A stretch of 64,000 nucleotides of DNA, taken from NCBI RefSeq assembly GCF_037126435.1, contig NZ_CP147020.1:1843293-1907292 (forward strand), given 5' to 3'. The notes beneath the pieces are model-generated. The model was not told where the DNA came from, did not search any database, and saw only the letters and a list, made by a program, of their open reading frames with translations. The translations under genes and the position numbers were made by a program. This DNA comes from Bernardetia sp. ABR2-2B. GTDB taxonomy: Bacteria; Bacteroidota; Bacteroidia; Cytophagales; Bernardetiaceae. Each line of letters starts with the position of its first letter. The first letter of the stretch is position 1. Positions 25,386 to 56,604 of this stretch are shown in pieces.

Positions 25386-27095
25386 ATGGCAAAGAAAAAA
25401 TCCAAAGCAAAAATAATTTCGAATAAAGAAACACAACCAGCTTCGAATGTAAATTCAAAAAAAGCAACCCCAAAAAAGCAAATAGAACCTATAAAAGAGG
25501 ATAATAATCTGCTTTTTTCGCCCATTTCTACAAAACTAGCTTTGATTCTGACACTTGTTGCAGCGTGTCTGTATTTTGCTTTTTCTTTTGTTTCCGAAGG
25601 GTTTTATCAGCAAGATGAAGCTGTACACTATGTTTCGATGAAGCGTTTTTGGTTTAATCCAAATAGAATTTTGAGCAACTGGGAAAAACCTGGATTTAAG
25701 CTCGTTTATGCCTTGCCTTCACTTTTGGGTGTTCATTTTGTTACTTTTTTTAATTGTCTTTTGGCTGCTTTTTCTGGATTCTTTGCTTTTAAATTGGCAC
25801 AGAAAATAAACATTAAGATTCCTGCTCTAGCTCTTATTTTCTTGCTTACCCAACCGTTTTGGATTGGTCTTTCTTTTCGTAATTACTCTGAACTTTTAGC
25901 TGCCTTCCTTTTGATTTTGGCTGTCTATCTCAATGAAGACAAAAAATATGCTTTTGCTGCCCTTGCTGCTTCGTACATTGTCTTTATTCGTCAAGAATTT
26001 TATCCATTTTTGGCTCTCTATTTTTTCTTTTTGCTTTATAAAAAACAATGGCTTCCTGCACTTCTGACAGGTGTTTTTCCATTAGTTCACAACTTTTGGG
26101 GGGCAGCTATTACAGGCGATTTTCTGTATTTATTAAATCAAGTTTTGAAGACAAGTAGTGAAATAGGCGACCAATATCCAAGACAAGGTTTCGAACATTA
26201 TTTCTTGATGTCAGCAACTGTTTATGGTGGAATTATTATTACACTTATTGTGGCTTATTTTACGTTGAAAGCATTTCAAAAGAAAATTCCTCACGTTACA
26301 GTTGCTATTTTACCAACACTTTACTTTCTAATGTACTGTGTTTTTAATATTCAGTCTGTTCCTATTGGACCTGCAACGGCTGGAAACTTGCGTTATTTGA
26401 TTATTGTTGCTCCTCTTTTTAGTGTAATGGCTGCTTTAGCTGTTGAGGAATATCGAAGTACAAAAGATGCTTGGAAGGTAATTTATGCACTAATTCCGTT
26501 ATCTATTTTGGTAGGAATTTATATGACATATCCTGATAATCAGATTATGCTTTTGGATGAAAACTATGCAGAAAGAATGGCAAGGGCAGGAAGGGAGTTT
26601 CAAGTAGAACGTTATTTTGCGCCTCTAATTGCTGTTTTGGGAACTATTATTATTCTTATTATTGGTCTTTCATTTTCTCAAGCCAGACTTGCTTTTGCTG
26701 TTTTTGCTGTTTTTATGGCACTCATTACGCTTAAGCCAAAACCACTTTCAGAAGAAGATTCAAATGTGAAGAGTATGGCAAAATGGTATGAAAACTTTAC
26801 TGAAAAATATGGACAAACACCTATTTTGGTAAACCATCAACTTTTTTATTACTATTTAGATGAAACACCTGAAAGTTTTGAGATTACACCAACTTCAATA
26901 GACTCTACGACAGTTGCTAATCTGCCACAAAATGGTCTTATTTTTTGGGATTCTCATTATTCGTATCGTCCAGAACAAAACAAAGCAATGCTTAATTACA
27001 AATATTTCTTAGAAAACCCTCAAAAATTTGATAAAATACAAGAGTTTTGGGCTGCTGATAGAAGTTTTGTAGGATTTGTTTTTCGTAAAAAATAA
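25386..27095 (+). CDS. Polytopic membrane protein, possibly a GT-C fold glycosyltransferase (PMT/ArnT-like).
   Basis: 569-aa ORF with a lysine-rich N-terminal tail and at least 10 predicted TM helices. The family assignment is tentative. Confidence 0.35.
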   Translation: MAKKKSKAKIISNKETQPASNVNSKKATPKKQIEPIKEDNNLLFSPISTKLALILTLVAACLYFAFSFVSEGFYQQDEAVHYVSMKRFWFNPNRILSNWEKPGFKLVYALPSLLGVHFVTFFNCLLAAFSGFFAFKLAQKINIKIPALALIFLLTQPFWIGLSFRNYSELLAAFLLILAVYLNEDKKYAFAALAASYIVFIRQEFYPFLALYFFFLLYKKQWLPALLTGVFPLVHNFWGAAITGDFLYLLNQVLKTSSEIGDQYPRQGFEHYFLMSATVYGGIIITLIVAYFTLKAFQKKIPHVTVAILPTLYFLMYCVFNIQSVPIGPATAGNLRYLIIVAPLFSVMAALAVEEYRSTKDAWKVIYALIPLSILVGIYMTYPDNQIMLLDENYAERMARAGREFQVERYFAPLIAVLGTIIILIIGLSFSQARLAFAVFAVFMALITLKPKPLSEEDSNVKSMAKWYENFTEKYGQTPILVNHQLFYYYLDETPESFEITPTSIDSTTVANLPQNGLIFWDSHYSYRPEQNKAMLNYKYFLENPQKFDKIQEFWAADRSFVGFVFRKK

Positions 27096-33075: not shown

Positions 33076-33115
33076 TAAAGAATTAAAGCAACATCATAAT
33101 TACGACAATTAACTT

Positions 33116-33778: not shown

Positions 33779-33780
33779 AT

Positions 33781-34673: not shown

Positions 34674-34788
34674 TGATATTATTGAATTATGATAGCACCT
34701 TTTTTACCGTTAAAATTGTAATTTATATGTTCACAAATGTTGGGCGTTGTCTGCAACTACGACCTATCAGTCCAGCAAGTCTTAGACC

Positions 34789-36224
34789 TTATCCTGTCCC
34801 ATAAACTTTTCAATTTTGGCTATTGTTTTGTATTGATTTTATTTATTTACTATTCTTACCTTCATTTTATGTTATATCAACCTTTGGAACATTGGAGCGA
34901 ACGAGAATTTATGGATTGTGGTGTTGAAGACTTACGAGAAGCGAAAAGTATTTCGAAGATGGCAGATAAATTATTAGCTACTCCAGAAAACTCTTTCAGT
35001 AGTAGCGTAGGTAATAGTCTACGAAAAGCAGCTTGGCGTATTTTTTCAAAGGAAGAAGTAGATATTAGCTACGGACATTATCGTCAATCTTCTCTTCGTT
35101 GTTCCTCTGAATCTATGGTTTTGGTTCACCAGGATACAACAGATTTGAATTTTGGAGGTCATTTGGCTAGTGAAGGTTTAGGTGACTTAGGAGGTAGTAC
35201 TGGCAAGCCTATTCTAGGTCTTTGTGTTCATAGTGCTTTAGTTACTACGGAAGCAGGTATTCCTTTGGGTTTGATTTCACAAAAGATATGGGCGCCTACA
35301 GTGGGCAGTAAAGAAAAAAAAGTAATTCCTCACCTTCCAATAGAAGAAAAAGAAAGTTATCGTTGGTTAGAGGCTCTACAAGATATTAGCCATCGTTTAA
35401 AAGATGTTTCTAAGGTAATTGTAGTTTCTGATAGAGAGAGTGATTTTTATGAATATATTGATGCTACTCGTGGTAGAAATGTGGAGTTGTTATTTAGAGT
35501 GCATCATTTACGTCGTAGAGTATATGCAAATGGAGAGAAGATAGCTTTAGGGCAAGTTAGTTTTTCATCATTATCAGAGATAGATGTTTTTCTACCTAAG
35601 AGCAAAACTAGAGAAGCTAGAAAAGCTCGTCTTACAATAAGCTAGGGAGATATTATTTGCCCACCTTCGCAAAGGAAAAAGGGATCAGAACATCATTTAT
35701 CTCTTATTATAGCTAAAGAAATGCACCCTCCCAAAGATCAAGAGGCAGTAGAATGGTATCTACTAACCACTCAAAAAATAGTTACCCTTCAACAGGCACT
35801 TCTTTGTATAGAACACTACAAAAAACGTTGGACTATTGAGCGTTGGCATTATGTGCTTAAACAGGGTTTACGAATAGAAAAACTACAGTTTGATACATTT
35901 ACTTCACTATCTAATGCTATCAGCTTACTCTCCATTGTAGCTTGGCAACTTTATTTGCTCAAAAAACTGGCAGAAGACTATGAAGATATTTCTGCTGATC
36001 AAGTATTGACAAAGATACAACTAGAGGTGTTAGGAAAACAAAGTCAGAAAAAAATACGCTACCTTCAAGAGGCTTTGATACGCATCGCTGTGTTAGGTGG
36101 ATTTACACCATCTAAAAAACAACCTCTACCTGGCGAAATGACAATATGGAAAGGGTATAAGATGCTTAGTTTAATAGTTCAAGGCTATAAACTGGCTAAC
36201 CCAAAAAAATATGGGACAGGATAA
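34789..36224 (+). mobile_element. IS4-family insertion sequence with perfect 12-bp terminal inverted repeats (TTATCCTGTCCC / GGGACAGGATAA) and a 9-bp direct target duplication GTCTTAGAC (34779-34787 and 36226-36234). It is inserted into the palindromic core of an R1 repeat.
   Basis: TIRs and TSD read directly from the sequence. Flanking halves at 34737-34788 and 36225-36275 together reconstitute an R1 element. Confidence 0.75.
34869..36224 (+). pseudogene. IS4-family transposase interrupted by a single in-frame TAG at 35643-35645. Both halves are in the same reading frame.
   Basis: ORFs 34737..35645 and 35721..36224 are both in frame 0 with no other stop between them. The C-terminal motif YKKRWTIERWHYVLKQ is typical of IS4. 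The likely start is the ATG at 34869, inside the IS. Confidence 0.65.
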
Positions 36225-36648: not shown

Positions 36649-36649
36649 C

Positions 36650-38641: not shown

Positions 38642-38664
38642 TCAAAGATTATAAGAATAGCACT

Positions 38665-38710: not shown

Positions 38711-39734
38711 AAAACTCCAAATAAGGAATAAGTTTTGTTAGGTTTTCCTCTTTGATGGCTCTTGATTTTTTAATATCTTCTATATTTTTATAATTTCCGT
38801 GCTGTTTTTTGTACTTTAATAAAATACTTGCTGATTTTCCTTTTATGTATAAATGATTTTTAAGAGTTTGGTAATCTGCTTTGTTTATATTTATTTTTTT
38901 GATGGGAGAAATAATCAAAGCATACTTTTTTAATTCTTCATAAGCTTCTGGGGAAAGAATATAAACGTCTTTTGCCTGTTCTAAAGAATGAAAACCTCCT
39001 ATTCTATTTCTAAAATTCTCTATTTGAAGAGCTGTTTTTTCTCCTATTCCTCTTATTTGCTTTAAGGTCGCTGTATCAGTCGTGTTTATATCAAACTTTT
39101 CTATGACTTTTGGAACATATTTTTTATACTCTTTCTTCTCATACGTGGAAGTATATTTATTCTCTGAATTATCTTTGCCATAGTTCTTATACTTATTTTT
39201 ATCATATTTCTTCTTCTTGTATTTATTTTGAGAAGCATATTTATTTTTATAATAAGCCTTTCTATCTACCGAATCAGGCAAATCTATATAGTCTTTCAAA
39301 CGCTCATACTCTTCTTTTGGAAAACCATTAAAACGTTCTAAATCATTTTTTTGAAGAAAGACATATTTTTTATTGACTGCATTTACTACCCTTTTGGCAA
39401 CCCAAGGCCTTACACCCATTGCTTGCCATTGTGCTATCGATAATTTGTTTGGGTTGAAGAGTGGAATTTCTAACATTGCTAACTTTGTTTCTCTATCCAA
39501 AGGCTGTTGCATCTCCAAAACTGCCAACAAACTATCTGCTTTTTCAACTTGTAATGCTGTCAACTCAGCATCTATTTCATCTATACTTTGTACTCTCTCA
39601 TAAATTATTGCAAGAATAGGAAATACAAAAACTATTGACAAAACAACCATTCCATTTGCTTCTCGCTGAGAAAAATTGCTATTGTTCTTTACTAATTCAG
39701 AAAATTCTGCCCTTATATTTTGGATGAGGTTCAT
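38709..39734 (-). CDS. Membrane-anchored protein with tandem helix-hairpin-helix (ComEA-like) DNA-binding repeats.
   Basis: 341-aa ORF with an N-terminal TM helix and two HhH-like segments (LKQIRGIGEKTALQI; INKADYQTLKNHLYIKGKSASIL). Confidence 0.45.
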   Translation of the reverse strand: MNLIQNIRAEFSELVKNNSNFSQREANGMVVLSIVFVFPILAIIYERVQSIDEIDAELTALQVEKADSLLAVLEMQQPLDRETKLAMLEIPLFNPNKLSIAQWQAMGVRPWVAKRVVNAVNKKYVFLQKNDLERFNGFPKEEYERLKDYIDLPDSVDRKAYYKNKYASQNKYKKKKYDKNKYKNYGKDNSENKYTSTYEKKEYKKYVPKVIEKFDINTTDTATLKQIRGIGEKTALQIENFRNRIGGFHSLEQAKDVYILSPEAYEELKKYALIISPIKKININKADYQTLKNHLYIKGKSASILLKYKKQHGNYKNIEDIKKSRAIKEENLTKLIPYLEF

Positions 39735-39922
39735 TTCTTTATGGTTTTTATTTTTTGAAATATAAGAATTTTTCTTTGAAGTTGTTTAAGATTTGAAGCA
39801 GGAAAACATTTAATAACTTTTGTTGCAGATGATTTTGATGAGCCTTTAGAAGATATTTTAACTAAAAAGTTACCAATTTGGTAACTTTTTTTAGTATATT
39901 GGAGTTTAACTAAAAACGAGGT

Positions 39923-40216
39923 ATGCGAATAATTGCAAAAAGAACACTACGAGAATTTTGGGAAATACATGCTGATTGTGAACAGCAGTTGAAGGCGTGG
40001 TATAGTGAAATTGAAAAAGCAGACTTTCAAACCATAAATCAACTCAAAGAGAATTATCCTAATGCAAGTATTCTCAAAGAAAACAGAATTGTTTTCAATA
40101 TAAAAGGAAATAATTATCGCCTAATTGTAAAATTTAATTTTGAATTTCAAATCGGTTGGATACGATTCATAGGTACACACACCGAATATGACAAAATAAA
40201 TGCAAACGAAATATAA
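39923..40216 (+). CDS. higB: Type II toxin-antitoxin system HigB-family toxin (mRNA interferase).
   Basis: 97-aa ORF MRIIAKRTLREFWEIHADCEQQLKAWYSEI...NYRLIVKFNFEFQIGWIRFIGTHTEYDKI, which is characteristic of HigB/RelE-fold toxins. It is followed immediately by an HTH antitoxin. Confidence 0.7.
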   Translation: MRIIAKRTLREFWEIHADCEQQLKAWYSEIEKADFQTINQLKENYPNASILKENRIVFNIKGNNYRLIVKFNFEFQIGWIRFIGTHTEYDKINANEI

Positions 40217-40217
40217 G

Positions 40218-40577
40218 ATGAATATACAACCAATTACCACAGAAAAAGACTATCAAGAAGCATTAGAAAGGCTAGAATTTATTTTTGATGCAAAAAAAGG
40301 AACTCTAGAGGGAAATGAATTAGAAATTCTATCTATTCTGATAGATAAATATGAAAACGAAAACTTTCCTATCGAAATGCCAAACCCAATAGAGGCTATT
40401 AAATTTAGAATGGAACAAATGGGAATAAGCAATAAAGAACTTGCTGATATCTTGGGTTATAAAAGTAGAGTGAGCGAAATTTTTACTAAAAAAAGAAAAT
40501 TGAGTTTGGCTATGATACGCAAACTTCACACTCATTTGTCTATACCAACAGAAGTTTTGATTAGAGAATATAATTAA
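40218..40577 (+). CDS. higA: HigA-family antitoxin with an HTH (XRE-like) domain.
   Basis: ORF ending LIREYN with an HTH (GISNKELADILGYKSRVSEIFTKKRKLSLAMIRKL). The ATG at 40218 follows the higB stop directly. The track's alternative start at 40200 overlaps higB. Confidence 0.7.
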   Translation: MNIQPITTEKDYQEALERLEFIFDAKKGTLEGNELEILSILIDKYENENFPIEMPNPIEAIKFRMEQMGISNKELADILGYKSRVSEIFTKKRKLSLAMIRKLHTHLSIPTEVLIREYN

Positions 40578-40715
40578 ATGATATTACGCAGAAATAGAAT
40601 TTGAAAAATTTCTCGTACAAACAAACGAAACTCACGATTTTAATCGTGAAAAAAAACAGATACAAAATAGTAGAAACAACAATACAAATATTCGTTTCTA
40701 GGTAAATGAATACAA

Positions 40716-40812
40716 AAAAAAGCCTTTCAAAAAATAAATTTTGAAAGGCTTTTTGATTATATAATGTATTGTTGGTGTCACTTTGCTAAAACACCAACAA
40801 CGGCATTTCAGA
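40716..40812. terminator. Two hairpins (aaagcctttcaaaa...ttttgaaaggcttt at 40716-40760; tgttggtgt...acaccaaca at 40773-40802) between higA and the 3' end of rpoC. The second resembles an R2 fragment (accaacaacggc).
   Basis: Inverted repeats read directly from the sequence. Confidence 0.45.
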
Positions 40813-40813
40813 A

Positions 40814-43800
40814 TTAACCTACTGTTTCAGTAGTTTCTTCTTCGTTTTCTGCTTCTAATGCTTCTAAACGCATTCTGTTTAATTGTGCTTCTGTACGAGT
40901 TGATTTTACATTTTCATCAGATAATGTATCTTCAAGTTTGTCATACGTTTTCTCATCATAAACGATAAGGTCTTCGTACTTACGCAACCCTGTACCTGCA
41001 GGAATAAGGTGTCCTACAATTACATTTTCTTTAAGACCGTTTAAGTCATCAGATTTACCACGTATAGAGGCTTCACTTAATACTTTTGTAGTCTCTTGGA
41101 AAGAAGCTGCTGACATGAAACTCTTCGTACCCAAAGATGCCTGTGTGATACCACGCAGAGTAGGCTTAGAAACTGCTGGTTGTGCTTCACGCACTTTAGC
41201 AATTTTCATATCCTTACGACGCAGACTAGAATTTTCATCTCTAAGCTCACGAGCCGTAATAATCATACCTACTTTTAGTTTGGTAGATTCTCCTACATCA
41301 GTAACGATTTTCTTATCCATAAATGAATCATTTTCTGCACGAACATCAAATTTATCTACAATTTGATTCGGCAGTAATGAAGTATCTCCCGGATCGATAA
41401 TCTCTACTTTCTGCATCATTTGGCGAACGATTACCTCAATATGCTTATCATTGATTTTTACACCCTGTAAGCGATAAACATCTTGAATTTCGTTAGTCAA
41501 ATATTCTTGAACTGCTGTTGGTCCTTTAATAGAAAGAATATCGGCTGGTGTAATTGCACCATCTGAAAGTGGCATACCTGCTTTTACAAAATCTTTCTCC
41601 TGTACGAGAATGTGTTTAGAAAGCTGAACCATATATTTCTTAATGATACCGTCTTTCTTAGATTCTACAAAAATTTCTCTGTTACCACGTTTGATTCCTC
41701 CGTAACTTACAATACCATCAATTTCTGATACTACTGCTGGGTTGGAAGGATTACGTGCTTCAAAAAGTTCTGTTACACGTGGAAGACCACCTGTAATATC
41801 TCTACTCTTCGAAACTGAACGAGGAATTTTCACTAAAATCTGACCTGCTTTTACTTGTTCTCCTTCTTCAATAGAAAGATATGCTCCAGCAGGAACATTA
41901 CTACTTGCAGATTCGCCTTTTGCATTTACGACAGTCAGCGTAGGATTTCGTGTCTTGTCTCTACTTTCAATAATGATTTTCTGACGGTGTCCTGTCTGCT
42001 CATCAGATTCTTCTTTATAAGTAATGCCTTCATCGATTCCTTCAAAATTCACTGTTCCATCATATTGAGAAAGGATAACAGCATTAAAAGGATCAAAGTT
42101 GTATAAAGCATCGTTCTTTTTGACCATCTGACCATCTTTAACAGTCAAGAATGAACCATAAGGAACATTGAGAGAAGCTAATACTTTAGAATTATTATCA
42201 GCATCTACAATTCGTAATTCACCATAACGTGACATAACTGCTTTTGCTTTCTTGCCTTCTTCATCAAGCGTGTCTATTGTCTGAACATCTTCTAAAATAA
42301 CCTTTCCATCTTTCTTAGCCTTAATAATAGGTTCAGCAGAAATGTTAGAAGCCGTACCACCAACGTGGAAAGTACGAAGTGTAAGCTGTGTACCTGGCTC
42401 TCCAATAGATTGAGCAGCAATTACACCAACTGACTCACCTTGCTGTACTAATTTTCCAGAGGCAAGATTTCGTCCATAACACATGGCACAAACACCTACA
42501 CGAGTTTCACAAGTAAGTACAGAACGTATATCTACTGCTTCTACACCTGCTTCTTCGGCACGTTTGGCTGCAACTTCATCTATTAGTTCGCCAGATTCAA
42601 TAAGAACTAGCTCTTCATTTTCTGGATGGAAAACATCTTGCAATGATATTCTACCCAAAATACGGTCAGAAATCGGTTCGATAGTTTCTTCTTGTTCTTT
42701 TAGAGCCGTTACTGTCAGTCCACGTAAAGTTCCACAATCAGTTTCATTTACGATAATATCTTGAGCAACATCTACCAAACGACGAGTAAGATAACCAGCA
42801 TCGGCAGTTTTAAGAGCAGTATCTGCAAGACCTTTCCTAGCACCGTGTGTAGAGATAAAGTATTCCAAAACGTCTAATCCTTCTTTAAAGTTAGAAAGAA
42901 TAGGGTTTTCGATGATTTCTCCTACCGAACCTTGTAAGTTCTTTTGAGGTTTAGCCATCAGACCACGCATACCACCTAATTGACGGATTTGTTCACGAGA
43001 ACCACGTGCGCCAGAGTGCATCATCATATAAATAGAATTAAATCCTTGTTCGTCAGTTTCTAACTGCTCCATCAATTCATCTGTAATTCTACGGTTTACT
43101 TTTGTCCAAATATCAATTACTTGGTTGTAACGTTCGTTATCAGTGATAAGACCCATAAAGTAGTTTTGAGTAATCGCTGCTACTTCGTCTTTAGCTTCTT
43201 GAACTAAACGCTCTTTATTTTCCGGAACTGGAATATTATTGATACCAATAGAAAGACCACCTCGGTAAGCTTGGTCGAAACCTAAAAATTTAATCTCATC
43301 TAAGAATTCGGCAGTACGAGCCATACCGACTTGCTTAACAATTTTAGAGATTACTTTTGTAAGTGTCTTTTTACTTAAAAGCTCATCAATATAACCAGCT
43401 TCTTCAGGAACACATTTATTAAATAAAACACGTCCTGCAACTGTTTCAATAGTTTTGTATTCTAATTCGCCAGTTTCTTCATTCAATACTTTTGTACGAA
43501 CGAAAATATAAGCGTGTTTAGAAATAGATTTATGATTGAGAGCCATGACTACTTCCTCTTCCGAGTAGAATCTCATGCCTTCTCCTTCAATTTTCAATTC
43601 TGGAATACTTCTTCTTCCTTTTGTCAAGAAATAAAGACCCAAAACCATATCCTGTGAAGGTACAGTAATCGGGCTTCCACTTGCAGGAGAAAGAATATTA
43701 TGAGAAGCAAGCATTAATAGAGAGGCTTCCAAAACAGCTTCTTGTCCTAGAGGGACGTGAACAGCCATTTGGTCACCATCAAAATCGGCGTTGAATGCCG

Positions 43801-45214
43801 TACAAACTAATGGGTGCAACTGAATTGCTTTTCCTTCAATAAGTTTTGGTTGGAAGGCTTGAATACCCAAACGGTGCAAAGTAGGCGCACGGTTGAGCAG
43901 AACAGGATGTCCTTTCAATACATTTTCCAAAATATCCCAAATTACTGGGTCTTTTCTATCAACAATTTTCTTCGCTGATTTTACAGTCTTGACGATACCA
44001 CGCTCAATAAGTTTGCGAATTACAAATGGCTTAAATAGCTCGGCAGCCATATTTTTAGGAAGACCACACTCATGAAGTTTGAGTTCTGGACCTACCACGA
44101 TTACCGAACGACCCGAGTAATCAACACGCTTACCCAAAAGGTTTTGACGGAAACGTCCTTGTTTACCTTTGAGCATATCTGAAAGTGATTTTAAGGCACG
44201 ATTACCATCACCACGAACAGCATTTACTTTACGAGAGTTATCGAAAAGAGAATCAACAGCTTCTTGAAGCATACGTTTTTCATTACGTAAAATTACTTCA
44301 GGAGCTTTAATATCTATAAGTCTTTTTAGACGGTTGTTACGAATAATAACACGACGGTATAAATCATTCAAATCCGAAGTTGCGAAACGTCCACCATCAA
44401 GGGGAACTAAAGGACGCAATTCTGGTGGAATGACAGGAACCATTTTGATAACCATCCAAGATGGCTCATTCGGAACATTTCTAGATTTGGCATCACGGAA
44501 TGCTTCCACTACACGCAAACGTTTCAAGGCTTCTGCCTTACGTTGTTGTGAAGTTTCGTTCATTGCTGCTGCACGTAAATCATACGAAAGCTGATCTAAA
44601 TCTAATCTAATTGGGTCAAGAAGCATAACAATTGCTTCTGCTCCCATTCTTGCTATGAATTTTGTAGGGTCAGAGTCATCTTTTTGCTGTTCTTCACGAG
44701 GTAATTTGTCCATAATGTCCAAATACTCGTCTTCTGTCAAAAAGTCTAAACGCTGCAATCCTTCATCTTCCATAGAACCAGGCTGTACTACGGCATAACG
44801 CTCGTAATAAATAATCTGGTCTAATTTTTTGGTTGGCAAACCGAGCAAATAACCTATTTTATTAGGCAATGAACGGAAATACCATATATGCGCCACAGGA
44901 ACAACAAGTTGAATGTGTCCCATGCGCTCACGACGGACTTTCTTTTCCGTTACTTCTACGCCACAACGGTCGCAGATGATTCCTTTATAGCGAATACGCT
45001 TGTACTTACCACAATGACACTCCCAATCTTTTACAGGTCCGAAGATACGCTCACAGAAAAGACCTCCCATTTCGGGTTTGTAGGTACGATAATTTATCGT
45101 TTCTGGTTGAGTAACTTCTCCGAACGAACTATTAAGAATAGATTCTGGAGATGCCAAGCTGATAGTGATTCGCTTGAAATCGTTTTTTAACTTTCTGTTC
45201 TTTTGGAACGACAT
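40814..45214 (-). CDS. rpoC: DNA-directed RNA polymerase subunit beta prime.
   Basis: 1466-aa ORF with a canonical N-terminus ([36 protein letters not shown]) and the NADFDGDQM catalytic motif. Confidence 0.95.
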
Positions 45215-45414
45215 GGGCGATGCAGTTTTGATTTTGGAGTAACAATCTACAAAGTTAGGAAAAAAAATTGAAAATTCCTTTTTTTATATGAAATATTTTT
45301 GTAGGTAATAGATTTTTGTTTTACGGTACAAGATTGAGTAAAAGGCAGATTTTTATTTTCAAGTAAATACAAAATATTTACTTAGTTGTTGGGCTTAGTT
45401 TGTAACTAAGAACT

Positions 45415-45586
45415 ATCAATTATATATCTTCAAATTTATGTGGTCAAGTAATTACAAAAATACTTACTTGACTTGCAAATCTAAGATTTAGCTACGCTGA
45501 CTTAAAAGTTGCTGAAATGATAGGTCGTAGTCATAAACAACGCTTAGCAATTTTTCTCTAGTTTTTTTGAACACTACGTCCATCTG
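45415..45586 (+). repeat. R1 repeat copy (full length, ~150 bp).
   Basis: About 88% identical to the copy at 45950-46106. It contains taattacaaaaatact, the aaatctaagattt palindrome, gataggtcgtagtcat and ggaacactacg. Confidence 0.85.
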
Positions 45587-45663
45587 GGAGGCTTAAAAAC
45601 TAGACAAAAAAAATGTCTGACGCATGACACGCCAAACATTAAACAAATGATAAATTTTATTTT

Positions 45664-45826
45664 AGTAAGCTAGTAGATTGAAGTCCAAATCTAAGTCTTC
45701 GGCATACTCTTCGCCACTTTCGCCTCCGATAATTTTGCTAGAATCTTGAATTTTCATTTTCTCAAATTTCTTAATTTCAACTTTCTCACTTTTTACAGAA
45801 GTAAAAAAACTTTTTAACTTTTTCAT
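45664..45826 (-). CDS. Small ORF (54 aa) with an acidic C-terminus, flanked by direct R1 repeats.
   Basis: MKKLKSFFTSVKSEKVEIKKFEKMKIQDSSKIIGGESGEEYAEDLDLDFNLLAY. Not in the ORF track (below 60 aa). Confidence 0.3.
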
Positions 45827-45949
45827 AAATTCAAATTTTAATTAGTAATAAAAATCAAATATACTCAAAATCAGTCACTTAACAAGTGAAAGATTACTTT
45901 AATATTTTCATGATATTCCTTTTCAAAAGATTTATTTATAATAATATCA

Positions 45950-46106
45950 GTTATATAAACCTTCAAATTTATGTTGTCAAGTAATTACAAAACTACCTAC
46001 TTGACCTGTAAATCTAAGATTAGCTACGCTGACTTAAAAGTTGCTGAAATGATAAATCATAGTCATAGACAACGCTTAACTGATAATTTTTGGGAACACT
46101 AATAGG
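45950..46106 (+). repeat. R1 repeat copy, a direct repeat of 45415-45586.
   Basis: Sequence alignment by eye, about 88% identity. Confidence 0.85.
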
Positions 46107-46115
46107 AATGGAGTA

Positions 46116-46547
46116 TTATTTAAAAAAAGGGTTAGCAGTTATAGCAAAATAACTTGCTGTTATAGAAGGTAATTCATTTCCTGCATAAGAATAAACGCTA
46201 CCATATACCCATATAAGTATATCAGATTCTGAATTATCACTATTATAAACAGCAACTATCCATTTATTAGAAGAAATATTTTTCATTTTTAAATACCCTC
46301 CTTTCTTTTTTGTGTAAACTTCACCCACATATAAAAGTAATCCCATAAGATTACTGTATGTACTTTCTTTAGAAATTTCATTGCCAATTAAAAAATTGTC
46401 AATATAGTAAAGACTTTCTTCGCTATAATCCATTTTCTCACTAGACAGTCCTATATTTTTTATTGTATGCTTGATTAAATCATTTTTATGCTCTAGTAGT
46501 TTGCTACCATAAACATTTATATCTGCTAAAACATGTGAGTTTCTCAT
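46116..46547 (-). CDS. Hypothetical protein (ORFan).
   Basis: 143-aa ORF with no motif I recognise. Confidence 0.35.
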   Translation of the reverse strand: MRNSHVLADINVYGSKLLEHKNDLIKHTIKNIGLSSEKMDYSEESLYYIDNFLIGNEISKESTYSNLMGLLLYVGEVYTKKKGGYLKMKNISSNKWIVAVYNSDNSESDILIWVYGSVYSYAGNELPSITASYFAITANPFFK

Positions 46548-46699
46548 TTCCTTTGTGGTTTTACAATTAAAAATAAGAAATATAACAAAAAATAAAAAAT
46601 TTCTTTATAAACATTGAAATAGAGTATTTTAGTATTTATTGAACTGAAAAATCAAGTAAAGTAGGTTCAAAATTAGAGTTTGTTTTTGCATCTATTTTA

Positions 46700-46760
46700 A
46701 TCACAACTATTGGACGTTGTCTTTAGCGCAGCGAACGACCTATCAATTTTACAAGTCTTC
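46700..46760 (-). repeat. R1 repeat fragment in reverse orientation (ttggacgttgtctttagcgcagcgaacgacctatcaa...caagtcttcagacttaaac).
   Basis: The reverse complement matches the R1 core including the caagtcttcagacttg palindrome. Confidence 0.75.
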
Positions 46761-46838
46761 AGACTTAAACTAAAAACTCAAATATATTAAATAGGCAGTG
46801 TTTTCATATTCTTTTGGCGAAATGCTACAATAAAAAAA

Positions 46839-49781
46839 CTAAAACCTAGTTACAAATTCAATTATAGTTTCTAAAATCTGTTTTCCTTCATTCAATTCTA
46901 CTTTGTTTTTTCTCAAAAATTTTAAAGTAATTCCGAAAAGTGAAGCTTGATTCACTTCAAACTCTTTTACTTTATCAAAATCTAGTTCTGTTTCTGAATG
47001 TAGAAAAGTGGTTTTGTCGTACCAGATTTTACTTTCCTTCTCAAACCAAATTTTAACTATTTTTTTAGTCTTTACTTTTTTGGTTTCTTCTTCAAAAAGT
47101 TCTACAACTTCAAATTCAATTTTGCTTTTAGATTCCTTCAAAAACTTCTGTAACAAAAACTCTCCTTTGTTGGCAAAATGATGGAAATCTTTATAAATAG
47201 GAACTCTAGGAACTTCATGTTTTAGCTCTTCTTTATATTTATGTTTGAATATATCACGCTGCCAAACAGCAAAAATATAACCCAAGATAAGCTCATTTGT
47301 CATATTCTCTTCTGTCGGAACTACAAAATTTTCAGCTTCTTCTTTTTCTAGCTTTTGCCAATAATTTTCTATAAAATCAATCGCATTTTCTCCACTTCTA
47401 AAATATTTTTTCAATACTTCAAAGCTTTCTTTATTTCGTGCAGCTTTATTTTCTAACCTTTCAAAAGTTCGTTTTGCATTCTTAAAAACCTTTATGATTT
47501 GCTCAAACTGTATGTAAGTATTCGTTTCTGGCTGGTGCAGATTTTCTAGTAGTTCTTTAGTCATCTTGAACTCATCTTTATCTACGATATTTGACAAAGC
47601 TCTCAACTCAAAAGCCAGTTCTTGATTCACTTGCAAAAACTCAAAATCAGATAAATCAAAAAGAAAACTCAAAGATTGTTCTACTTTTTCGATTCTTTTT
47701 TCAAATGCTGCTGCATATCCTCTTCGAAACTTAGAGAGTATATTCTTTGAGAAGTTTATTCTTTTTCTTGTTTTATTTCCTTCAACTTTATCATAAATAT
47801 AAAAAGGAAAAATATAAGCATTTGGTAAAATTTCATTTAAAAAACTAGGAGGAACAGGCTTATTAGTTGCCCAAATTTCGCCTCCATTTGACGTATTTGT
47901 CCAAAAAACCAAGATATTTTCGCCTTGTTTTCGATTTGGAAAAATTTTATCTAAGTCGTAAAACTCTTCAAAAACTGATTTTTCATAATACCAAAAACCA
48001 TTTTTAAAAACAGAAACCTGCGTTTCGATTAAATTTTTCTCATTAAATTCTAATGGTTTATTTACTATTTTTTGATTTATTTTTCCTTCAACTTTTCCCT
48101 CAATTATTTTTATAGTATCCTTTTCAAAAAGTGTATTTGCTGCTAGTTTGGAGACTAAAACGTTTTTCTTTTTTTCTAACTTATCCTTAACTTTTTCTTC
48201 TGACTTTTCAATTTGTTGATTATAATTTTGAAGAAATATTTTTACTTTGTTTTTCAAATTATTTTTAGAATAATTATCTGAATTTGGTTCAATGAAATTT
48301 TCTATTTTTTGTGTTGGAACGGCTCTAAAATAGGTTTTAAAAATAGCATTTTTATTTCCTTTTAAATTATCAGAACCAGCAGCAGGGATAAGTTTGTGAT
48401 ACTCTGACAAAACTGGTTTCGGTTTCCATGTATTTTGAATAAAATGATTTGAAAAATTGACAACATCTTTATTTAGATTCGAATAAAAAACTCCTTTTTC
48501 TAATGCTGTATTTTTATGAAAAATAATTGCTAAACCTTTCTCATTTTTTTCTTGATTTTCATAAATTTCAATTCTCTCAAACCACTCTTGCAACAAACGA
48601 CGAAAAGAAGACAATGATTTTTTTTCTAGTATATTTTTCTGATTTTCATTTAATAAAACTATCAAAACTCCATTCTCTGAAAGTGATTTAAAGTTATTTT
48701 GAATAGAATTGAAAAGCTGCTTTTCTGTCTTATTTAAGGATTGAAAAAGCAAATTTACTTTTGTAGAAATAAGATTATGTTTATCAACATCTAAAACAAT
48801 TAAATCATAATTTGATTCAGAGTTTATTTTATTTACTGATTCAGAATTTTTAGAAAGTCCAAAAATTCCCACTTGTGAAATTATTTTTTTGGCTGCAAAA
48901 GCAAACTGTGAAGTTTCATTTTGAGTAGAAAAAACCAAAAGCAAATCGGCAAAACTTTCAAATGTTCCGAAAAGATTTTTTTTCTTAAATTCTTGATTTT
49001 CAGTATTTAACTCTAATGATTTCAAGATTGTAGTATCATTCATCCAAATCTTTTTGTTTTTAGATTTGATTTCATTTATTTTTTGTTGAATAATGGGAAT
49101 AAAATCCAAACTAAAGCTATCATTTTGCTTCAAAAACTTATTCAAAATTCCATATAACAGACCTTCACTTTCCTTTATTTTATACTTTTGAGAAAAATCG
49201 TTTACGAACTTTTCTATTTCAAAATAAGACGAAGGAATTTCGTTTTTGTGGGAGTTGTTTAAAAACAAACGTAATGATTTAAGAATTTCATTTCTCTGAA
49301 AAAACGACTTTTTAAAATTACTTTGTTCATACATTGTTTGCCAAAACTCAAAAATAGCAATCCATTCAGAAAGTAAATAAATTGAATGTCCACCTTCTTC
49401 CAAAAGCTGAATAATAGGTTGTAACTCTTCTTTTTGAGCTACTGAAAAACCCTTTCGAAACTGATGTTGAATTTCTTTTTTTCTTCTTATAAAATCTGCT
49501 TTAGCTTGTTCTGAAAGTAGTTTTTCTTTTTGACAAAATTCTTTTTGTAGGTTATTTAGTTCTTCTAAAAACTGTATTACAGCCTCATTAAGTTGCTTAT
49601 AATCAGCGATTAAAATAGACTTTTCTTGAATCGAAGTAATTTTTAATTTATCCTTTTCTACTTCTATTTTTGCCCAAATTACTTCGTTTTCATCCCAAAG
49701 TTGAAACTGCAGAGCCGAAAACTGCACTAGTTTTAGTGCAGGAAAATATTTTTTAAAAAAAGATAAAAGAGAAATCTCCAT
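46839..49781 (-). CDS. Large lysine-rich hypothetical protein (980 aa) of unknown function. It is not rpoB.
   Basis: Long uninterrupted ORF with no catalytic motif I recognise. A possible weak Rossmann-like stretch (QVGIFGLS...YDLIVLDVD...GVLIVLLNE) is not convincing. Confidence 0.45.
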   Translation of the reverse strand: MEISLLSFFKKYFPALKLVQFSALQFQLWDENEVIWAKIEVEKDKLKITSIQEKSILIADYKQLNEAVIQFLEELNNLQKEFCQKEKLLSEQAKADFIRRKKEIQHQFRKGFSVAQKEELQPIIQLLEEGGHSIYLLSEWIAIFEFWQTMYEQSNFKKSFFQRNEILKSLRLFLNNSHKNEIPSSYFEIEKFVNDFSQKYKIKESEGLLYGILNKFLKQNDSFSLDFIPIIQQKINEIKSKNKKIWMNDTTILKSLELNTENQEFKKKNLFGTFESFADLLLVFSTQNETSQFAFAAKKIISQVGIFGLSKNSESVNKINSESNYDLIVLDVDKHNLISTKVNLLFQSLNKTEKQLFNSIQNNFKSLSENGVLIVLLNENQKNILEKKSLSSFRRLLQEWFERIEIYENQEKNEKGLAIIFHKNTALEKGVFYSNLNKDVVNFSNHFIQNTWKPKPVLSEYHKLIPAAGSDNLKGNKNAIFKTYFRAVPTQKIENFIEPNSDNYSKNNLKNKVKIFLQNYNQQIEKSEEKVKDKLEKKKNVLVSKLAANTLFEKDTIKIIEGKVEGKINQKIVNKPLEFNEKNLIETQVSVFKNGFWYYEKSVFEEFYDLDKIFPNRKQGENILVFWTNTSNGGEIWATNKPVPPSFLNEILPNAYIFPFYIYDKVEGNKTRKRINFSKNILSKFRRGYAAAFEKRIEKVEQSLSFLFDLSDFEFLQVNQELAFELRALSNIVDKDEFKMTKELLENLHQPETNTYIQFEQIIKVFKNAKRTFERLENKAARNKESFEVLKKYFRSGENAIDFIENYWQKLEKEEAENFVVPTEENMTNELILGYIFAVWQRDIFKHKYKEELKHEVPRVPIYKDFHHFANKGEFLLQKFLKESKSKIEFEVVELFEEETKKVKTKKIVKIWFEKESKIWYDKTTFLHSETELDFDKVKEFEVNQASLFGITLKFLRKNKVELNEGKQILETIIEFVTRF

Positions 49782-49998
49782 TGTTAAAGATATAATTTTT
49801 CAGAATTACTATTGAAGCTTCGAAAATATTTGATTTGTTAAATCTTAAAACAAAAATACGTTTTTTTTCTTATTACTGTCTATTTGTCAGTCGTCTAAAC
49901 AACGGCTTTATTTTAGCAAAAATTTTTGTAAGTTAAGCTAAACTGCTAATAAAATACTGAAATAATTCACTTATACATTATACAAAAACCATTTTTAT

Positions 49999-50694
49999 AT
50001 GTTTGACCCAAAGAAGTTTCACAATACCGAATTTTATAAACACGCTCACAAACATCAAGGCGTTCCTACTACGACATTAGAAGGATATGCAAAACAAAGC
50101 ATCACAAACTTTACTCCTTATATTATCGAAGAGCGTCAGCTTAATGTTGCTCAAATGGATGTTTTTTCTCGTTTGATGATGGACAGAATTATCTTTTTGG
50201 GAGTTCCTATTGACGACCAAGTTGCAAATATCGTAACGGCTCAACTTCTATTTTTAGAATCTGCTGACCACGAAAAAGATGTTTTGATGTACTTAAATAG
50301 CCCTGGTGGTTCTGTGTATGCAGGTTTAGGTATTTATGACACAATGCAATATATTCGTCCTGATGTAGCTACACTTTGTACTGGTTTGGCTGCTTCTATG
50401 GGTGCAGTTTTATTGACGGCTGGAGAAAAAGGCAAACGTACAGCACTTCCTCACGCTCGTGTAATGATTCACCAACCATTAGGAGGTATTCAAGGACAGG
50501 CATCTGATATTGAGATTACAGCAAAACAAATTTTGATAGTTAAGAAAGAATTAACACAAATTTTGGCTGACCAGTCTGGACAAGATTACGAAACAGTTGA
50601 AAGAGATTGCGACCGTGATTATTGGATGATTGCACCAGAAGCAAAAGAATACGGCTTGATTGATGAAGTTTTAGAGCGCAAGAAACAAGACTAA
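49999..50694 (+). CDS. clpP: ATP-dependent Clp protease proteolytic subunit.
   Basis: 231-aa ORF with the catalytic Ser region ([15 protein letters not shown]) and the His motif (MIHQPLGG). Confidence 0.9.
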
Positions 50695-50868: not shown

Positions 50869-52191
50869 ATGCAAACTACAAAAGAAAATCCTACCATTAC
50901 TTCTGCCGTTATTGATATCTCCACCAACAACAACTATTATAAAAATCTACATTCAAAATTCAAAAAAACTAGAGAGCGTACTCTCTCACTTTGTCAAGAT
51001 TTGCAGCCAGAGGACTTTGTTGTGCAGCCAATAGCAGATGTAAGTCCTACAAAATGGCATTTAGCACATACAACGTGGTTTTTCGAAACTTTTTTACTTA
51101 TTCCTTATCTTAAGGATTATAAAGTTTTTCAAGAGGAATACAATTATTTATTCAATAGTTATTACGAAACAGTTGGAAAAAGAGTGCTGAGAACTGATAG
51201 AGGAAACCTTACTCGCCCAACCACAAAGGAAATTTATGAATATAGAAAGTATGTAGATAATTCCCTTTCATTATTTTTTGACGAATTACAAAAAGGTAGT
51301 TTTGATAATGAAATAGAAGCCGAAATAAAAAAACGTCTTTTCATCGGTCTGAATCACGAAGAGCAGCATCAAGAATTATTGGTAACTGATATAAAATACG
51401 TTTTGGGAAATAATCCACTTTTCCCTGCTGTGAAAATGCCGATTAATGATTTTACTGTATTTGTAGGGAAAAGGCATGCCTTTTCCTCAAGTTTTGAAGT
51501 AAAAGAAGAGAATAATGAAGATTTTATAAAAATAAAAGAAGGAATTTATCAAATTGGTTTTCAATCAGATGATAAATCAGAGTTTTATTTTGATAATGAA
51601 AAAGGCGTTCATCGCACTTTTATAGAAGAATTTGAAATTTCTAAGAATTTAGTAACCAATAGAGAATATTTAGAATTTATAGAAGCTGGAGGTTATCAAA
51701 ACTTCAATTTTTGGCTTGCCGAAGGTTGGGATTTCGTAAAAGAAAACAATTTAAAAGCTCCTCTATATTGGTTTAAGGAAGAAAAAGAAAATAATACAAC
51801 ATGGTTTTATTATGACTTCAATCAGTCAGAAAATGGCTTACAAAAACTAGATTTAGATGCGCCTTTGTGTCATGTCAGTTTTTATGAAGCTGAAGCCTAC
51901 GCACAGTTTAGAAATATGCGTCTTCCAACAGAACAAGAATGGGAAGTGGCAAATGAGTTTTTTGAGTGGGGCAAACGCTGGGAGTGGACACGCTCTGCCT
52001 ACCAACCCTATCCAAACTTTGAAAAAGATGAAGGAGCTTTGGGAGAATATAACGGAAAGTTTATGATAAATCAGCTTGTTTTGCGTGGAAGCTCAGAAGC
52101 AACTGCACCAAATCATTCAAGACCAACCTATCGCAACTTCTTTCACGCTGACAAACGTTGGCAATACACAGGAATACGTTTGGTAAAGTAA
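50869..52191 (+). CDS. egtB: EgtB-like sulfoxide synthase (DinB_2 domain plus FGE-sulfatase domain), ergothioneine-type.
   Basis: 440-aa ORF with an iron-binding HX3HXE motif (GLNHEEQHQELL) and a DinB-like WHLAHTTWFFE. The C-terminal FGE fold has RLPTEQEWE and WEWTRSAY. No egtD is adjacent. Confidence 0.6.
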   Translation: MQTTKENPTITSAVIDISTNNNYYKNLHSKFKKTRERTLSLCQDLQPEDFVVQPIADVSPTKWHLAHTTWFFETFLLIPYLKDYKVFQEEYNYLFNSYYETVGKRVLRTDRGNLTRPTTKEIYEYRKYVDNSLSLFFDELQKGSFDNEIEAEIKKRLFIGLNHEEQHQELLVTDIKYVLGNNPLFPAVKMPINDFTVFVGKRHAFSSSFEVKEENNEDFIKIKEGIYQIGFQSDDKSEFYFDNEKGVHRTFIEEFEISKNLVTNREYLEFIEAGGYQNFNFWLAEGWDFVKENNLKAPLYWFKEEKENNTTWFYYDFNQSENGLQKLDLDAPLCHVSFYEAEAYAQFRNMRLPTEQEWEVANEFFEWGKRWEWTRSAYQPYPNFEKDEGALGEYNGKFMINQLVLRGSSEATAPNHSRPTYRNFFHADKRWQYTGIRLVK

Positions 52192-54618: not shown

Positions 54619-56604
54619 ATGAATTTCAAATTTATAGATTTATTTGCTGGAATTGGTGGTTTTCATTTGGCTATGCACAGACTTGGAGGAGAATGTGTTT
54701 TTGCTTCTGAACTAGATGATTTTGCACGTCTTACGTATCAAGAAAATTATCAAAAAATATCTCCTAAGTTATTTGAAGATGATTTATTTAATAAGGATAT
54801 TCGAACAGTTAGTCCAAAAGATTTACCTGATTTTGATGTTCTTTGTGCTGGTTTTCCGTGTCAGCCATTTAGTCAAGCAGGATATAAAAGAGGTTTTGCA
54901 GATAATCATAATTCAGAGAGAGGAAATTTATTTTTTAATATTGCTGAAATTTTGGAAGCAAAAAAGCCAAAAGCATTTTTCTTGGAAAACGTTCGTGGTT
55001 TGGTTACGCATGATAAAGGCAAAACTTTTAAAATCATTCGAAATATTATTGAAAATGAGTTAGGATATTCTTTTTATTATAAAGTCGTTCATGCATCTGA
55101 TTATGGTTTGCCACAACTAAGACCGAGAGTTTTTATAGTGGGTTTTAGAGATGAAAGTTTTATGAGTAGCTTTAATTTTCCTTCTCCTATTCCTTTAAAG
55201 TTTACGATGAGCGATGTTTGGGGGGGAGAATGTAGCCGAGAAATTGGTTTTACTATTCGGGTCGGTGGACGTGGTTCGGCTATTACTGACCGTAGAAATT
55301 GGGATAATTATTTGGTTGATGGACAGACAAAACGCTTGTCTTATATAGAAGCCAAAAAAATGCAGGGTTTTCCAGATGATTTTGAGTTTCCTGTTAGCAA
55401 AACACAAGCTATAAAACAGTTGGGAAATAGTGTGGCTGTGGATGCCGTTGAAGCTGTTGCAAAAAGTTTATTACAACACTTACAAACACTTGAAAATAAT
55501 CAAATTACACAAAACTCTAACTCTGACGAAATGGCAATCAAACCTACTAAAAATAAAGGAGAATGGACTGAGTTACTACTTTTTATAAAATTGCTATTAG
55601 ATAAAAAATTATATCTATCTGACAAAAACCTCAATACCACAAGCAGTTATTTTAAAATAAATAAAGTAACAACACACAATTTAGATTTGGAGTTTCTCTT
55701 ATCAAACTCTTCTACAATTATATCAAAAAATAAATTCGACAAGACAGAAAAACAAATCAGTATTTCTAAAATAATTACTCCTTCTATCATTCAATCTTTT
55801 GTTGAAAAAATAAAAAAGGAAAAAGGCACATTCGAAATTCCATCATTTAATATTATTCAAGATGAATTGGGTTTTAATGTTGTAAAAGGTGGAAATAGCA
55901 ATCAAAAAGCTGATATTTTATTAGATATTGAAAACGAAATTATACAAAAAGAAAACGAAGGCTTTGGAATAAAATCATATTTAGGAAGCAAACCAACGCT
56001 ATTAAATGCGTCTGGAAATACAAATTTTATATTCAAGGTAAATGGTATAGAAAAAGGCAATAAAACTATTATTGATGAGGTAAATCAAATAAATACAAGA
56101 ACAAAACTAAAGGATAGAATCAATAAAATAGAAGAGCTAGGTGGAAACTTTGAATATTTGGGAGCAGAAAGAGATACAATGGATTTTAACCTTAAAATGA
56201 TAGATAGTCAGATGCCAAAACTGATAGGAGAAATTCTACTTTGTTTTTATAAAGAACGAGTTTCTTCCATCGAAAAAATCACCAAGAGAATCATAGGAAA
56301 GGAGAAGGACGAAGAAATTTTACTAAAAAACAAAATCAAAAATCTATTGGTAAGTATCCTTTTAGGTTTCTTTGCAGGAACAAAATGGGATGGTGCATTT
56401 CAATCTAATGGAACAATCGTAATGAAAAATAATGGCGACTGTGTAGGTTTCCATATTGTAGAAATGGAGAATCTGAAAAATTATTTATTTGAAAATATTA
56501 AATTAGATATGCCTTCTACAACTAGACACCGTTTTGGACAACTTTATTCTGAAAAAAATGGAGAGTTATTTTTTAAATTAAATTTACAGTTACGTTTTAG
56601 TTGA
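54619..56604 (+). CDS. DNA (cytosine-5)-methyltransferase (aa 1 to ~290) fused to an uncharacterised ~370-aa C-terminal domain.
   Basis: C5-MTase motif I FIDLFAGIGGF, motif IV GFPCQPFSQAG, motif VI ENVRGL and motif X QLGNSVAV. The C-terminal half (from ~LQTLENNQ) has no MTase motifs. It has D/E/K clusters (ADILLDIENEIIQK) compatible with a PD-(D/E)xK nuclease, but this is not verified. Confidence 0.75.
   Translation: MNFKFIDLFAGIGGFHLAMHRLGGECVFASELDDFARLTYQENYQKISPKLFEDDLFNKDIRTVSPKDLPDFDVLCAGFPCQPFSQAGYKRGFADNHNSERGNLFFNIAEILEAKKPKAFFLENVRGLVTHDKGKTFKIIRNIIENELGYSFYYKVVHASDYGLPQLRPRVFIVGFRDESFMSSFNFPSPIPLKFTMSDVWGGECSREIGFTIRVGGRGSAITDRRNWDNYLVDGQTKRLSYIEAKKMQGFPDDFEFPVSKTQAIKQLGNSVAVDAVEAVAKSLLQHLQTLENNQITQNSNSDEMAIKPTKNKGEWTELLLFIKLLLDKKLYLSDKNLNTTSSYFKINKVTTHNLDLEFLLSNSSTIISKNKFDKTEKQISISKIITPSIIQSFVEKIKKEKGTFEIPSFNIIQDELGFNVVKGGNSNQKADILLDIENEIIQKENEGFGIKSYLGSKPTLLNASGNTNFIFKVNGIEKGNKTIIDEVNQINTRTKLKDRINKIEELGGNFEYLGAERDTMDFNLKMIDSQMPKLIGEILLCFYKERVSSIEKITKRIIGKEKDEEILLKNKIKNLLVSILLGFFAGTKWDGAFQSNGTIVMKNNGDCVGFHIVEMENLKNYLFENIKLDMPSTTRHRFGQLYSEKNGELFFKLNLQLRFS

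Follow-up and report, generated by a model that had tools for sequence, protein, structure and literature searches.

The stretch of DNA analysed here, a window of 64,000 nucleotides from Bernardetia sp. ABR2-2B (Bacteroidota, Cytophagales, Bernardetiaceae), contains two co-oriented open reading frames (ORFs) encoding 143 and 980 residues. The longer one is annotated in public databases as a restriction enzyme. Our reading, to which we give a probability of about three in four, is that the 980-residue protein descends from a single-chain Type IIL/ISP restriction-modification (RM) enzyme of the DrdV/MmeI/LlaGI lineage, has lost its catalytic activities and has been exapted to a non-catalytic role. 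An earlier prediction for the region, made from the sequence alone, described the two ORFs with the coordinates and strand given in Table 1 and placed them correctly between R1 repeats (the nearer being the second copy) and clpP. It suggested that they might form a novel defence or conflict system in an accessory, repeat-delimited island, or that the larger product might be a structural protein.

The two ORFs are separated by a gap of 291 bp. They are flanked on one side by rpoC and on the other by clpP, followed on the same flank by genes for an EgtB-type sulfoxide synthase and for RNase Y. Table 1 collects the features of the locus and the segments of the 980-residue protein.

Table 1. Features of the window and segments of the 980-residue protein, in window coordinates
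Feature	Coordinates	Strand	Remark
980-aa gene	46839..49781	-	exact match to Bernardetia sp. ABR2-2B protein annotated 'type ISP restriction/modification enzyme'
Residues 1-62, small beta-rich N-terminal domain	49596..49781	-	five strands after one helix, pLDDT 64-87 in the AlphaFold2 model
Residues 63-300, helical connector	48882..49595	-	in the place of the DrdV helical connector/ISP coupler; model helices 66-237
Residues 301-450, methyltransferase-like Rossmann domain	48432..48881	-	lacks the catalytic motifs
Residues 325-334, 'YDLIVLDVDK'	48780..48809	-	beta-4 and motif IV position, from column comparison with 8 active enzymes
Residues 451-575, linker and long basic helices	48057..48431	-	net charge +12; model helices 505-548 and 554-571; leads into recognition domain
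Residues 576-691, first half of target-recognition domain (Type_ISP_C)	47709..48056	-	aligned to DrdV 753-841 and to real enzymes; dN/dS 0.14-0.29
Residues 692-825, acidic helical insert	47307..47708	-	net charge -8; family-specific; gap opposite real enzymes in hhalign
Residues 826-980, second half of target-recognition domain	46839..47306	-	best Pfam stretch 814-926; DrdV 843-890
Residues 856-863, conserved motif 'ELKxExPR(I/V)PIYKDF'	47193..47216	-	in second half of target-recognition domain
143-aa ORF, WAF17_07885	46116..46547	-	strain-specific ORFan
rpoC	40814..45214	-	flank on one side of the two ORFs
clpP	49999..50694	+	flank on the other side, divergent from 980-aa gene
Conserved 78-nt block	49845..49922	.	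in the divergent intergenic region of the 980-aa gene and clpP; nearly invariant in an alignment of four Bernardetia genomes
EgtB-type sulfoxide synthase	50869..52191		beyond clpP
661-aa fused C5 cytosine DNA methylase (E 3e-79) and HpaII restriction endonuclease (E 4e-96)	54619..56604	+	apparently intact M-R enzyme
Transposase-like ORF, Tnp_DNA_bind	34737..35645		within the 19.7-kb stretch described below
R1 copy 1	45421-45546
R1 copy 2	45954-46078
54-aa ORF (MKKLKSFFTSVKSEKVEIKKFEKMKIQDSSKIIGG/ESGEEYAEDLDLDFNLLAY)	45662..45826	-	exactly between the R1 copies
Terminator-like hairpin	45612..45640	-	13-bp stem and T-run; after 54-aa ORF
Third, related dispersed repeat	46710-46759	-
Dispersed intergenic repeat family, core TGATAGGTCnTAGTCAT...GCGCTAAAGACAACG	15882-15975, 32833-32926, 46710-46759 (-), 45488-45546, 46020-46078		the last two are the second halves of R1

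Homology and predicted fold of the 980-residue protein

The 980-residue protein, in which the original prediction could assign no motif, was assigned by three routes: a Pfam domain, a chain of profile comparisons and a structural search. Pfam model PF18135 (Type_ISP_C) matches at E = 3.5e-24, with 86 bits against a gathering cutoff of 25.9, in two stretches split by an insert. A sequence search of the PDB with the family profile returns a sole match, the Type IIL enzyme DrdV, at E = 1.4e-7; residues 598-691 and 826-873 align to DrdV 753-841 and 843-890, with about 130 residues inserted in the 980-residue protein. Compared directly with real enzymes by hhalign, the Bernardetia profile scores a probability of 90.7% (E = 1.2e-6) over residues 371-975. 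The protein is linked to real ISP/IIG enzymes because intermediate, distant relatives close a profile-profile chain: the Bernardetia profile matches these inactive relatives with probability 100 (E = 1.6e-42, residues 302-958), and they in turn match seven bona fide ISP/IIG enzymes with probability 100 (E = 2.2e-64) across the coupler, the methyltransferase (MTase) domain and the target-recognition domain (TRD).

An AlphaFold2 model built from a bridging alignment, which includes the distant relatives and real enzymes, reached a pLDDT (predicted local distance difference test score) of 73.9. The bridging alignment was needed, as the 15 close orthologues alone gave a pLDDT of 38 and an unusable model. 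The remote-homology check that the original prediction had proposed, by profile comparison and by Foldseek on this model, returned Type IIL/ISP RM enzymes. DrdV is matched by Foldseek at E = 2.9e-19 over its full length (1164 columns), LlaBIII at 2.4e-17 and BpuSI at 1e-6; LlaGI and gamma-class N6-adenine methyltransferases are also among the matches, and the BREX (bacteriophage exclusion) structures 9ewz, 9ex7 and 8c45 appear as weaker ones. PADLOC returns a weak match to REase_MTase_IIG (2.7e-5), confined to the shared PRIP segment of the recognition domain. An NCBIfam match to a DNA 3'-phosphatase/HAD model (1.8e-3) was set aside as irrelevant; neither it nor the weak PADLOC matches is evidence of function.

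The protein is rich in lysine, glutamate and asparagine (K 13.1%, E 11.2%, N 8.7%), as had been noted, and the long helical stretches that had been foreseen appear as long helices in the model. The three segments singled out earlier as weakly Rossmann-like, QVGIFGLS, DLIVLDVD and GVLIVLLNE, all fall within an alpha/beta Rossmann-type domain. In secondary structure the order is N-terminal domain, helical connector, Rossmann MTase fold and TRD, which is the architecture of single-chain Type IIL/IIG enzymes. Residues 1-62 are possibly a relic of a PD-(D/E)xK nuclease domain. MAFFT aligns the N-terminal 'LQFQLWDENEVIWAKIEVEK' to the 'PDFRVWDGKNHITGYIEAK' of the Type IIG nuclease motif, with the aspartate replaced by an invariant Q27, E40 kept, and the lysine replaced by E, D or N at position 42; the corresponding hhalign match reaches E = 0.01 over 24 columns. 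No Pfam model matches this domain, MmeI_N included.

DrdV is built in the order nuclease, helical connector, MTase and TRD (bioRxiv 10.1101/2021.01.06.425610). The 980-residue protein resembles it in length (about 1000 residues), in having its N-terminal domain, helical connector, gamma-class MTase fold and C-terminal TRD in matching order, and in sequence motifs of the TRD, including PR(I/V)P. It differs in several respects. DrdV uses N448 and Y451 of its NPPY, whereas the 980-residue protein has neither motif I nor NPPY; it also lacks the motif VIII loop, its nuclease triad is not intact, and its TRD contains the helical insert. Its gene is part of the core set and is inherited vertically, unlike mobile defence genes. 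The public annotation has its source in LlaGI and LlaBIII (PDB 5ffj, 4xqk), the Type ISP enzymes, with which the Type_ISP_C domain is shared; distant members of the family also show weak ISP_coupler matches. Type ISP is, however, defined by an Mrr nuclease and a superfamily 2 (SF2) helicase motor, and the 980-residue protein has neither of these, nor the MTase motifs. BrxX/PglX of BREX systems (PDB 9ewz, 8c45) uses an MTase-TRD fold in the recognition of DNA sites (PMC11842806). The superfamily fold is the same in the 980-residue protein, but BrxX requires S-adenosylmethionine (SAM) and has NPPY, while the 980-residue protein has no NPPY and no BREX operon nearby.

Catalytic motifs, insert and distribution

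Gamma-class N6-adenine methyltransferases carry motif I (DPxxGxGxF) and motif IV (NPPY/W), and neither is present in the 980-residue protein. Across the alignment, motif I (as DPxxGTxTF) and motif IV (as NPP[YW]) occur in 8 of 8 active relatives and in none of 33 family members, 17 of them from Bernardetia and 16 distant. The block for SAM-binding motif I (DPxxGTGTF), expected in residues 63-300, is empty in all Bernardetia rows. At motif IV, Bernardetia has L-D-x-D ('DLIVLDVD') in place of NPPY, the strand 'GVLIVLLNE' is the equivalent of 'GIVAFITNS' in active enzymes, and the aromatic-residue loop of motif VIII is deleted in the hhalign alignment. A 'DPPF' in relative P0039, tried as a candidate motif IV, was rejected because its position does not correspond. 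The absences of NPPY and Walker motifs reported earlier hold, with no [DNS]PP[YFW] and no Walker A anywhere in the protein. The absence of D/E-x-K reported earlier was stated too loosely, since 15 such tripeptides occur by chance; the relevant point is the degenerate D...ExK triad (Q27 ... E40-V-E42) at the position aligned to the nuclease motif.

The Mrr nuclease and the helicase motor of Type ISP enzymes are likewise missing. There is no Mrr_cat match in Pfam, whereas the full ISP relatives P0161 and P0162 carry PF04471; there is no helicase match in Pfam and no Walker A, and the protein is about 550 residues shorter than ISP enzymes. ISP_coupler gives weak matches in the distant members only (E = 3e-8 to 3e-3) and none in the Bernardetia protein, the coupler being covered when the distant relatives are compared with real enzymes by hhalign. 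Because no methyltransferase, nuclease or helicase motifs are recognisable, the 980-residue protein is, judged by its sequence, very unlikely to methylate or cleave DNA in the ancestral manner. The 1063-residue protein P0026 (locus L005, 6717..9908), from a Cytophagaceae metagenome-assembled genome (MAG), is the sole distant member with an N-terminal extension alignable to the IIG nuclease. Its ExK position reads 'WEHIS', its gene lies directly upstream of uvrA, and it looks like an intermediate stage of decay. Most Microscillaceae members have no N-terminal domain at all.

The insert of about 130 residues carries the signature 'LFDLSDFEFLQVNQELAFELRAL ... KRTFERLENKAARNKESFEVLKKYF', summarised as [FLYW]E.[CLV]QV, which is found in 30 of the 33 motif-less members and in 0 of 8 active enzymes. 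Since the signature is divided in this way, gain of the insert and loss of catalysis go together. The insert is also the most constrained part of the protein. Against three orthologues, the approximate ratio of nonsynonymous to synonymous substitution rates (dN/dS) is 0.24-0.26 for the whole gene, 0.13-0.18 for the insert, and 0.29-0.48 for the former MTase domain, with 0.05-0.14 for clpP as a comparison gene. These values point to purifying selection on the 980-residue gene, together with faster evolution than in clpP (dN 0.16-0.23 versus 0.04-0.12). Conservation of an MTase domain above that of its TRD is the expected signature of diversifying specificity. Pairs of active enzymes show it, with identities of 0.67-0.86 for MTase versus 0.38-0.57 for TRD; in pairs from the 980-residue family (MTase/TRD 0.70/0.73, 0.61/0.69 and 0.18/0.41) the difference is gone or reversed.

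At least 15 full-length orthologues, 61-72% identical, come from B. litoralis DSM 6794 (Fleli_0823), OM2101, MNP-M8 and about a dozen MAGs or metagenome contigs. Every Bernardetia genome found has the gene intact and in the same place, with clpP divergent from it in four of four Bernardetia genomes (ABR2-2B, B. litoralis, OM2101 and an ENA MAG). It is core to the genus and vertically inherited, neither accessory nor mobile. A word-indexed homologue search returned Bernardetia only; given a mixed profile, it still missed the Microscillaceae relatives. HMMER, run exhaustively over 1.84 billion representatives, gave just 143 matches, among them proteins of 790-1060 residues and about 20% identity that share the C-terminal half and the insert, with Type_ISP_C, weak ISP_coupler and no N6_Mtase match.

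A genome scan with the insert signature located six loci, all from Microscillaceae, 'Cytophagaceae' or Cytophagales MAGs. Their neighbours include uvrA, an Rnf/Nqr subunit, a nucleotidyl transferase, FecCD and a histidine kinase. In an all-against-all BLAST of these neighbours no partner was common to all six loci, and one upstream gene with a Por_Secre_tail domain was common to just three closely related MAGs. No adjacency to clpP occurs in the six distant loci. Among active relatives the closest is P0160, whose nuclease and MTase motifs are intact and which adjoins a BsuBI/PstI RM system, a setting that is typical for defence and contrasts with that of the motif-less family.

Candidate functions

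In the explanation that best fits these results, an ancestral single-chain Type IIL/ISP RM enzyme would have lost SAM motif I, NPPY and the motif VIII loop. Its domain order (small N-terminal domain, helical connector, Rossmann MTase fold, TRD) would have been kept, and an acidic helical module of about 130 residues gained within the recognition domain. The product would then serve as a non-catalytic scaffold, most probably clamping DNA between its MTase-like and recognition domains, with the insert as a new interaction surface. A complete single-chain RM enzyme appears to have lost both activities and then to have been kept for long as a core gene. Catalytically inactive methyltransferase paralogues such as DNMT3L and METTL14 act as scaffolds and partners of an active paralogue. 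They seem comparable to the 980-residue protein in that the MTase fold outlasted the SAM and catalytic motifs and stayed under purifying selection; unlike it they are eukaryotic and unrelated in sequence, and no active-paralogue partner is known for the 980-residue protein.

That the protein is a DNA-binding or regulatory scaffold, with the insert as its new interaction surface, is a tentative proposal to which we give somewhat less than an even chance; DNA binding would suit the basic helices (net +12) that precede the TRD. A more specific version is more doubtful still: a housekeeping, sequence-specific DNA-binding or regulatory factor of RM origin, whose TRD reads a fixed sequence and whose insert recruits or regulates other factors, possibly co-regulated with clpP in Bernardetia.

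Several points weigh against the descent and exaptation of the 980-residue protein as set out above. The alignment given to AlphaFold2 included real enzymes, so that the predicted fold depends in part on the sequence evidence, and residues 1-300 are tied to the enzyme family only by their MAFFT placement, the model and a weak hhalign match (E = 0.01). The synonymous divergence of 0.7-0.9, at 30% GC, may be underestimated, which makes the dN/dS ratios approximate. The insert is acidic (net -8) and could block the DNA cleft instead of aiding binding, leaving DNA binding less than secure. A true C5-MTase/HpaII RM gene lies 5 kb off, and the surroundings are accordingly not entirely free of defence genes.

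Continued service in defence, by the 980-residue protein alone or with unlinked partners, is improbable in our judgement. It would act as a BrxX-like, non-methylating sensor of DNA sites, or as a decoy for phage DNA mimics such as Ocr. The BrxX/PglX protein does use the same MTase-TRD module to recognise foreign DNA and is bound by Ocr (PMC11842806), the BREX structures are among the weaker structural matches, and the recognition domain has been kept and constrained. No BREX or other defence genes, however, are adjacent to the gene in 10 related loci, no BREX genes flank it in the window, vertical inheritance at a single locus across two families is unlike that of defence genes, the recognition domain lacks the diversification typical of active enzymes, and no effector domain is present. 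The variable presence and clustering with defence genes that mark a defence island are not seen: the gene is constant and its neighbours are housekeeping genes.

A functionless, decaying relic that happens not to be disrupted yet is a considerably weaker explanation. All catalytic motifs are gone, the gene evolves faster than clpP, and constraint is relaxed in the domains that were once catalytic. Against this, a frame of about 3 kb is intact in all of the orthologues and in the relatives of about 20% identity from other families, dN/dS is about 0.25 overall and lower again in the insert, and that insert was newly gained and then strongly conserved.

Even less probable is the original proposal of an accessory cassette whose two ORFs make up a new defence or conflict system. 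In its favour, the ORFs are co-oriented and close together, one of them is of RM ancestry, an RM gene lies 5 kb off, and PADLOC gives weak matches in both products (REase_MTase_IIG for the larger, REase_II at 0.011 for the smaller). The match in the larger protein is limited, however, to the PRIP segment shared by recognition domains, and that protein lacks the catalytic motifs. A search of 5.8 billion proteins with the 143-residue protein returns that protein alone, and tblastn finds no match to it in related loci, phages or plasmids; Pfam and PADLOC give sub-threshold matches only (Spa1_C at 0.091 and the REase_II match), and NCBIfam none. It is therefore the ORFan it was taken to be, and no conserved pair exists, the gene 3' of the 980-residue orthologue being different in each of four Bernardetia genomes: a 569-residue protein, a YbjQ-like protein, NAD kinase and, in ABR2-2B, the 143-residue ORFan. 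The co-occurrence check suggested for the pair found no conserved partner and no defence-island context, and the supposed accessory gene is core to the genus, standing among housekeeping genes as its distant relatives do. Of the conflict-system idea there survives only the descent of the 980-residue protein from RM enzymes. The 143-residue ORF is an unrelated, strain-specific orphan and is not part of the biology of the 980-residue gene.

Least probable of all is the structural alternative, a large coiled-coil protein with no relation to enzymes, for although the sequence is K/E/N-rich and has several helices of 30-45 residues, about two thirds of it matches globular RM enzyme domains by profile and fold, giving a multi-domain enzyme scaffold instead.

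The 980-residue protein is not a new defence system, and what it does now is what we infer from its fold and conservation. The name 'type ISP restriction/modification enzyme' rests on one C-terminal domain and is misleading; because there is no helicase, no intact nuclease triad and no set of MTase motifs, it is wrong as a functional name, and censuses of defence systems that counted the protein would be wrong with it. The public annotation already implied the domain homology. The new points are the functional error in that annotation and the conserved lineage behind it, which carries the insert and is catalytically dead. Our literature searches turned up no account of the family, nor of pseudoenzymes derived from RM systems. 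With Bernardetia litoralis DSM 6794, from a cultivable genus, it becomes directly testable whether defence enzymes are exapted to cellular roles.

Flanking regions, the 143-residue ORF and the repeats

Within the spacer between clpP and the 980-residue gene, only the 78-nt block is alignable among the four genomes. It contains CTGACAAATAGACAG, a plus-strand hairpin with a T-run (49889-49907) and a TATTTTTG box. Bacteroidetes promoters have a -7 consensus of TAnnTTTG, and by its likeness to that consensus the TATTTTTG box would be a Bacteroidetes-type -7 box facing the 980-residue gene. The block probably represents shared promoter or leader elements. Rfam has no match anywhere in the 44.8-50.3 kb region of the window.

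The flank beyond clpP is a variable spot for true defence genes, because in B. litoralis only (locus L001, 4866-6706) GmrSD_N and HEPN_MAE_28990 proteins are inserted there, and neither the window nor two other genomes has them. This pair and the HpaII-type RM gene of ABR2-2B are both strain-specific. Identity to the ClpP of the window ranks L004 (96%) above L001 (95%) and L003 (83%), whereas for the 980-residue protein the ranking is L003 (72%), L001 (68%) and L004 (61%). This discordance hints at recombination within the genus.

On the other flank, about 19.7 kb separates the gene for the 569-residue protein (25386..27095) from the 980-residue gene in ABR2-2B; the two are adjacent in B. litoralis. 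The stretch (27100-46840) contains pyrB, an SDR gene, dinB, nrdB, a comEA-like gene and rpoC, as well as a transposase-like ORF, and is a rearrangement, not a mobile island. The rpoC gene has no rpoB immediately upstream, nor is there one within the window, so the usual rpoB-rpoC operon seems split in ABR2-2B; the orthologous locus has no rpoC nearby in three other Bernardetia genomes.

The 143-residue ORF is probably coding, because its frame is longer than expected by chance (when the 1.6-kb intergenic sequence was shuffled 2000 times, an open frame of at least 143 codons arose only twice) and its GC content by codon position (0.35/0.30/0.17) shows the same fall as in other low-GC genes of the window. 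The repeats around it are real: the R1 copies are 90-93% identical and no such repeat arises in 100 shuffles. What they bracket is only the stretch with the 54-residue and 143-residue ORFs, and the 980-residue gene lies outside any repeat-delimited island. Because the repeats enclose just this small, strain-specific stretch, the two genes are not a unit and the larger is not accessory. The stretch itself was created by local rearrangement.

The 54-residue ORF has no match in NCBIfam; its 'IGG' resembles the double-glycine leader cleavage site of Bacteroidota peptide precursors. The dispersed family with the core TGATAGGTCnTAGTCAT...GCGCTAAAGACAACG, to which the second halves of R1 belong, looks like an element of the repetitive extragenic palindrome (REP) or miniature inverted-repeat transposable element (MITE) type, and its copies are found at the edges of segments whose arrangement differs from that in B. 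litoralis.

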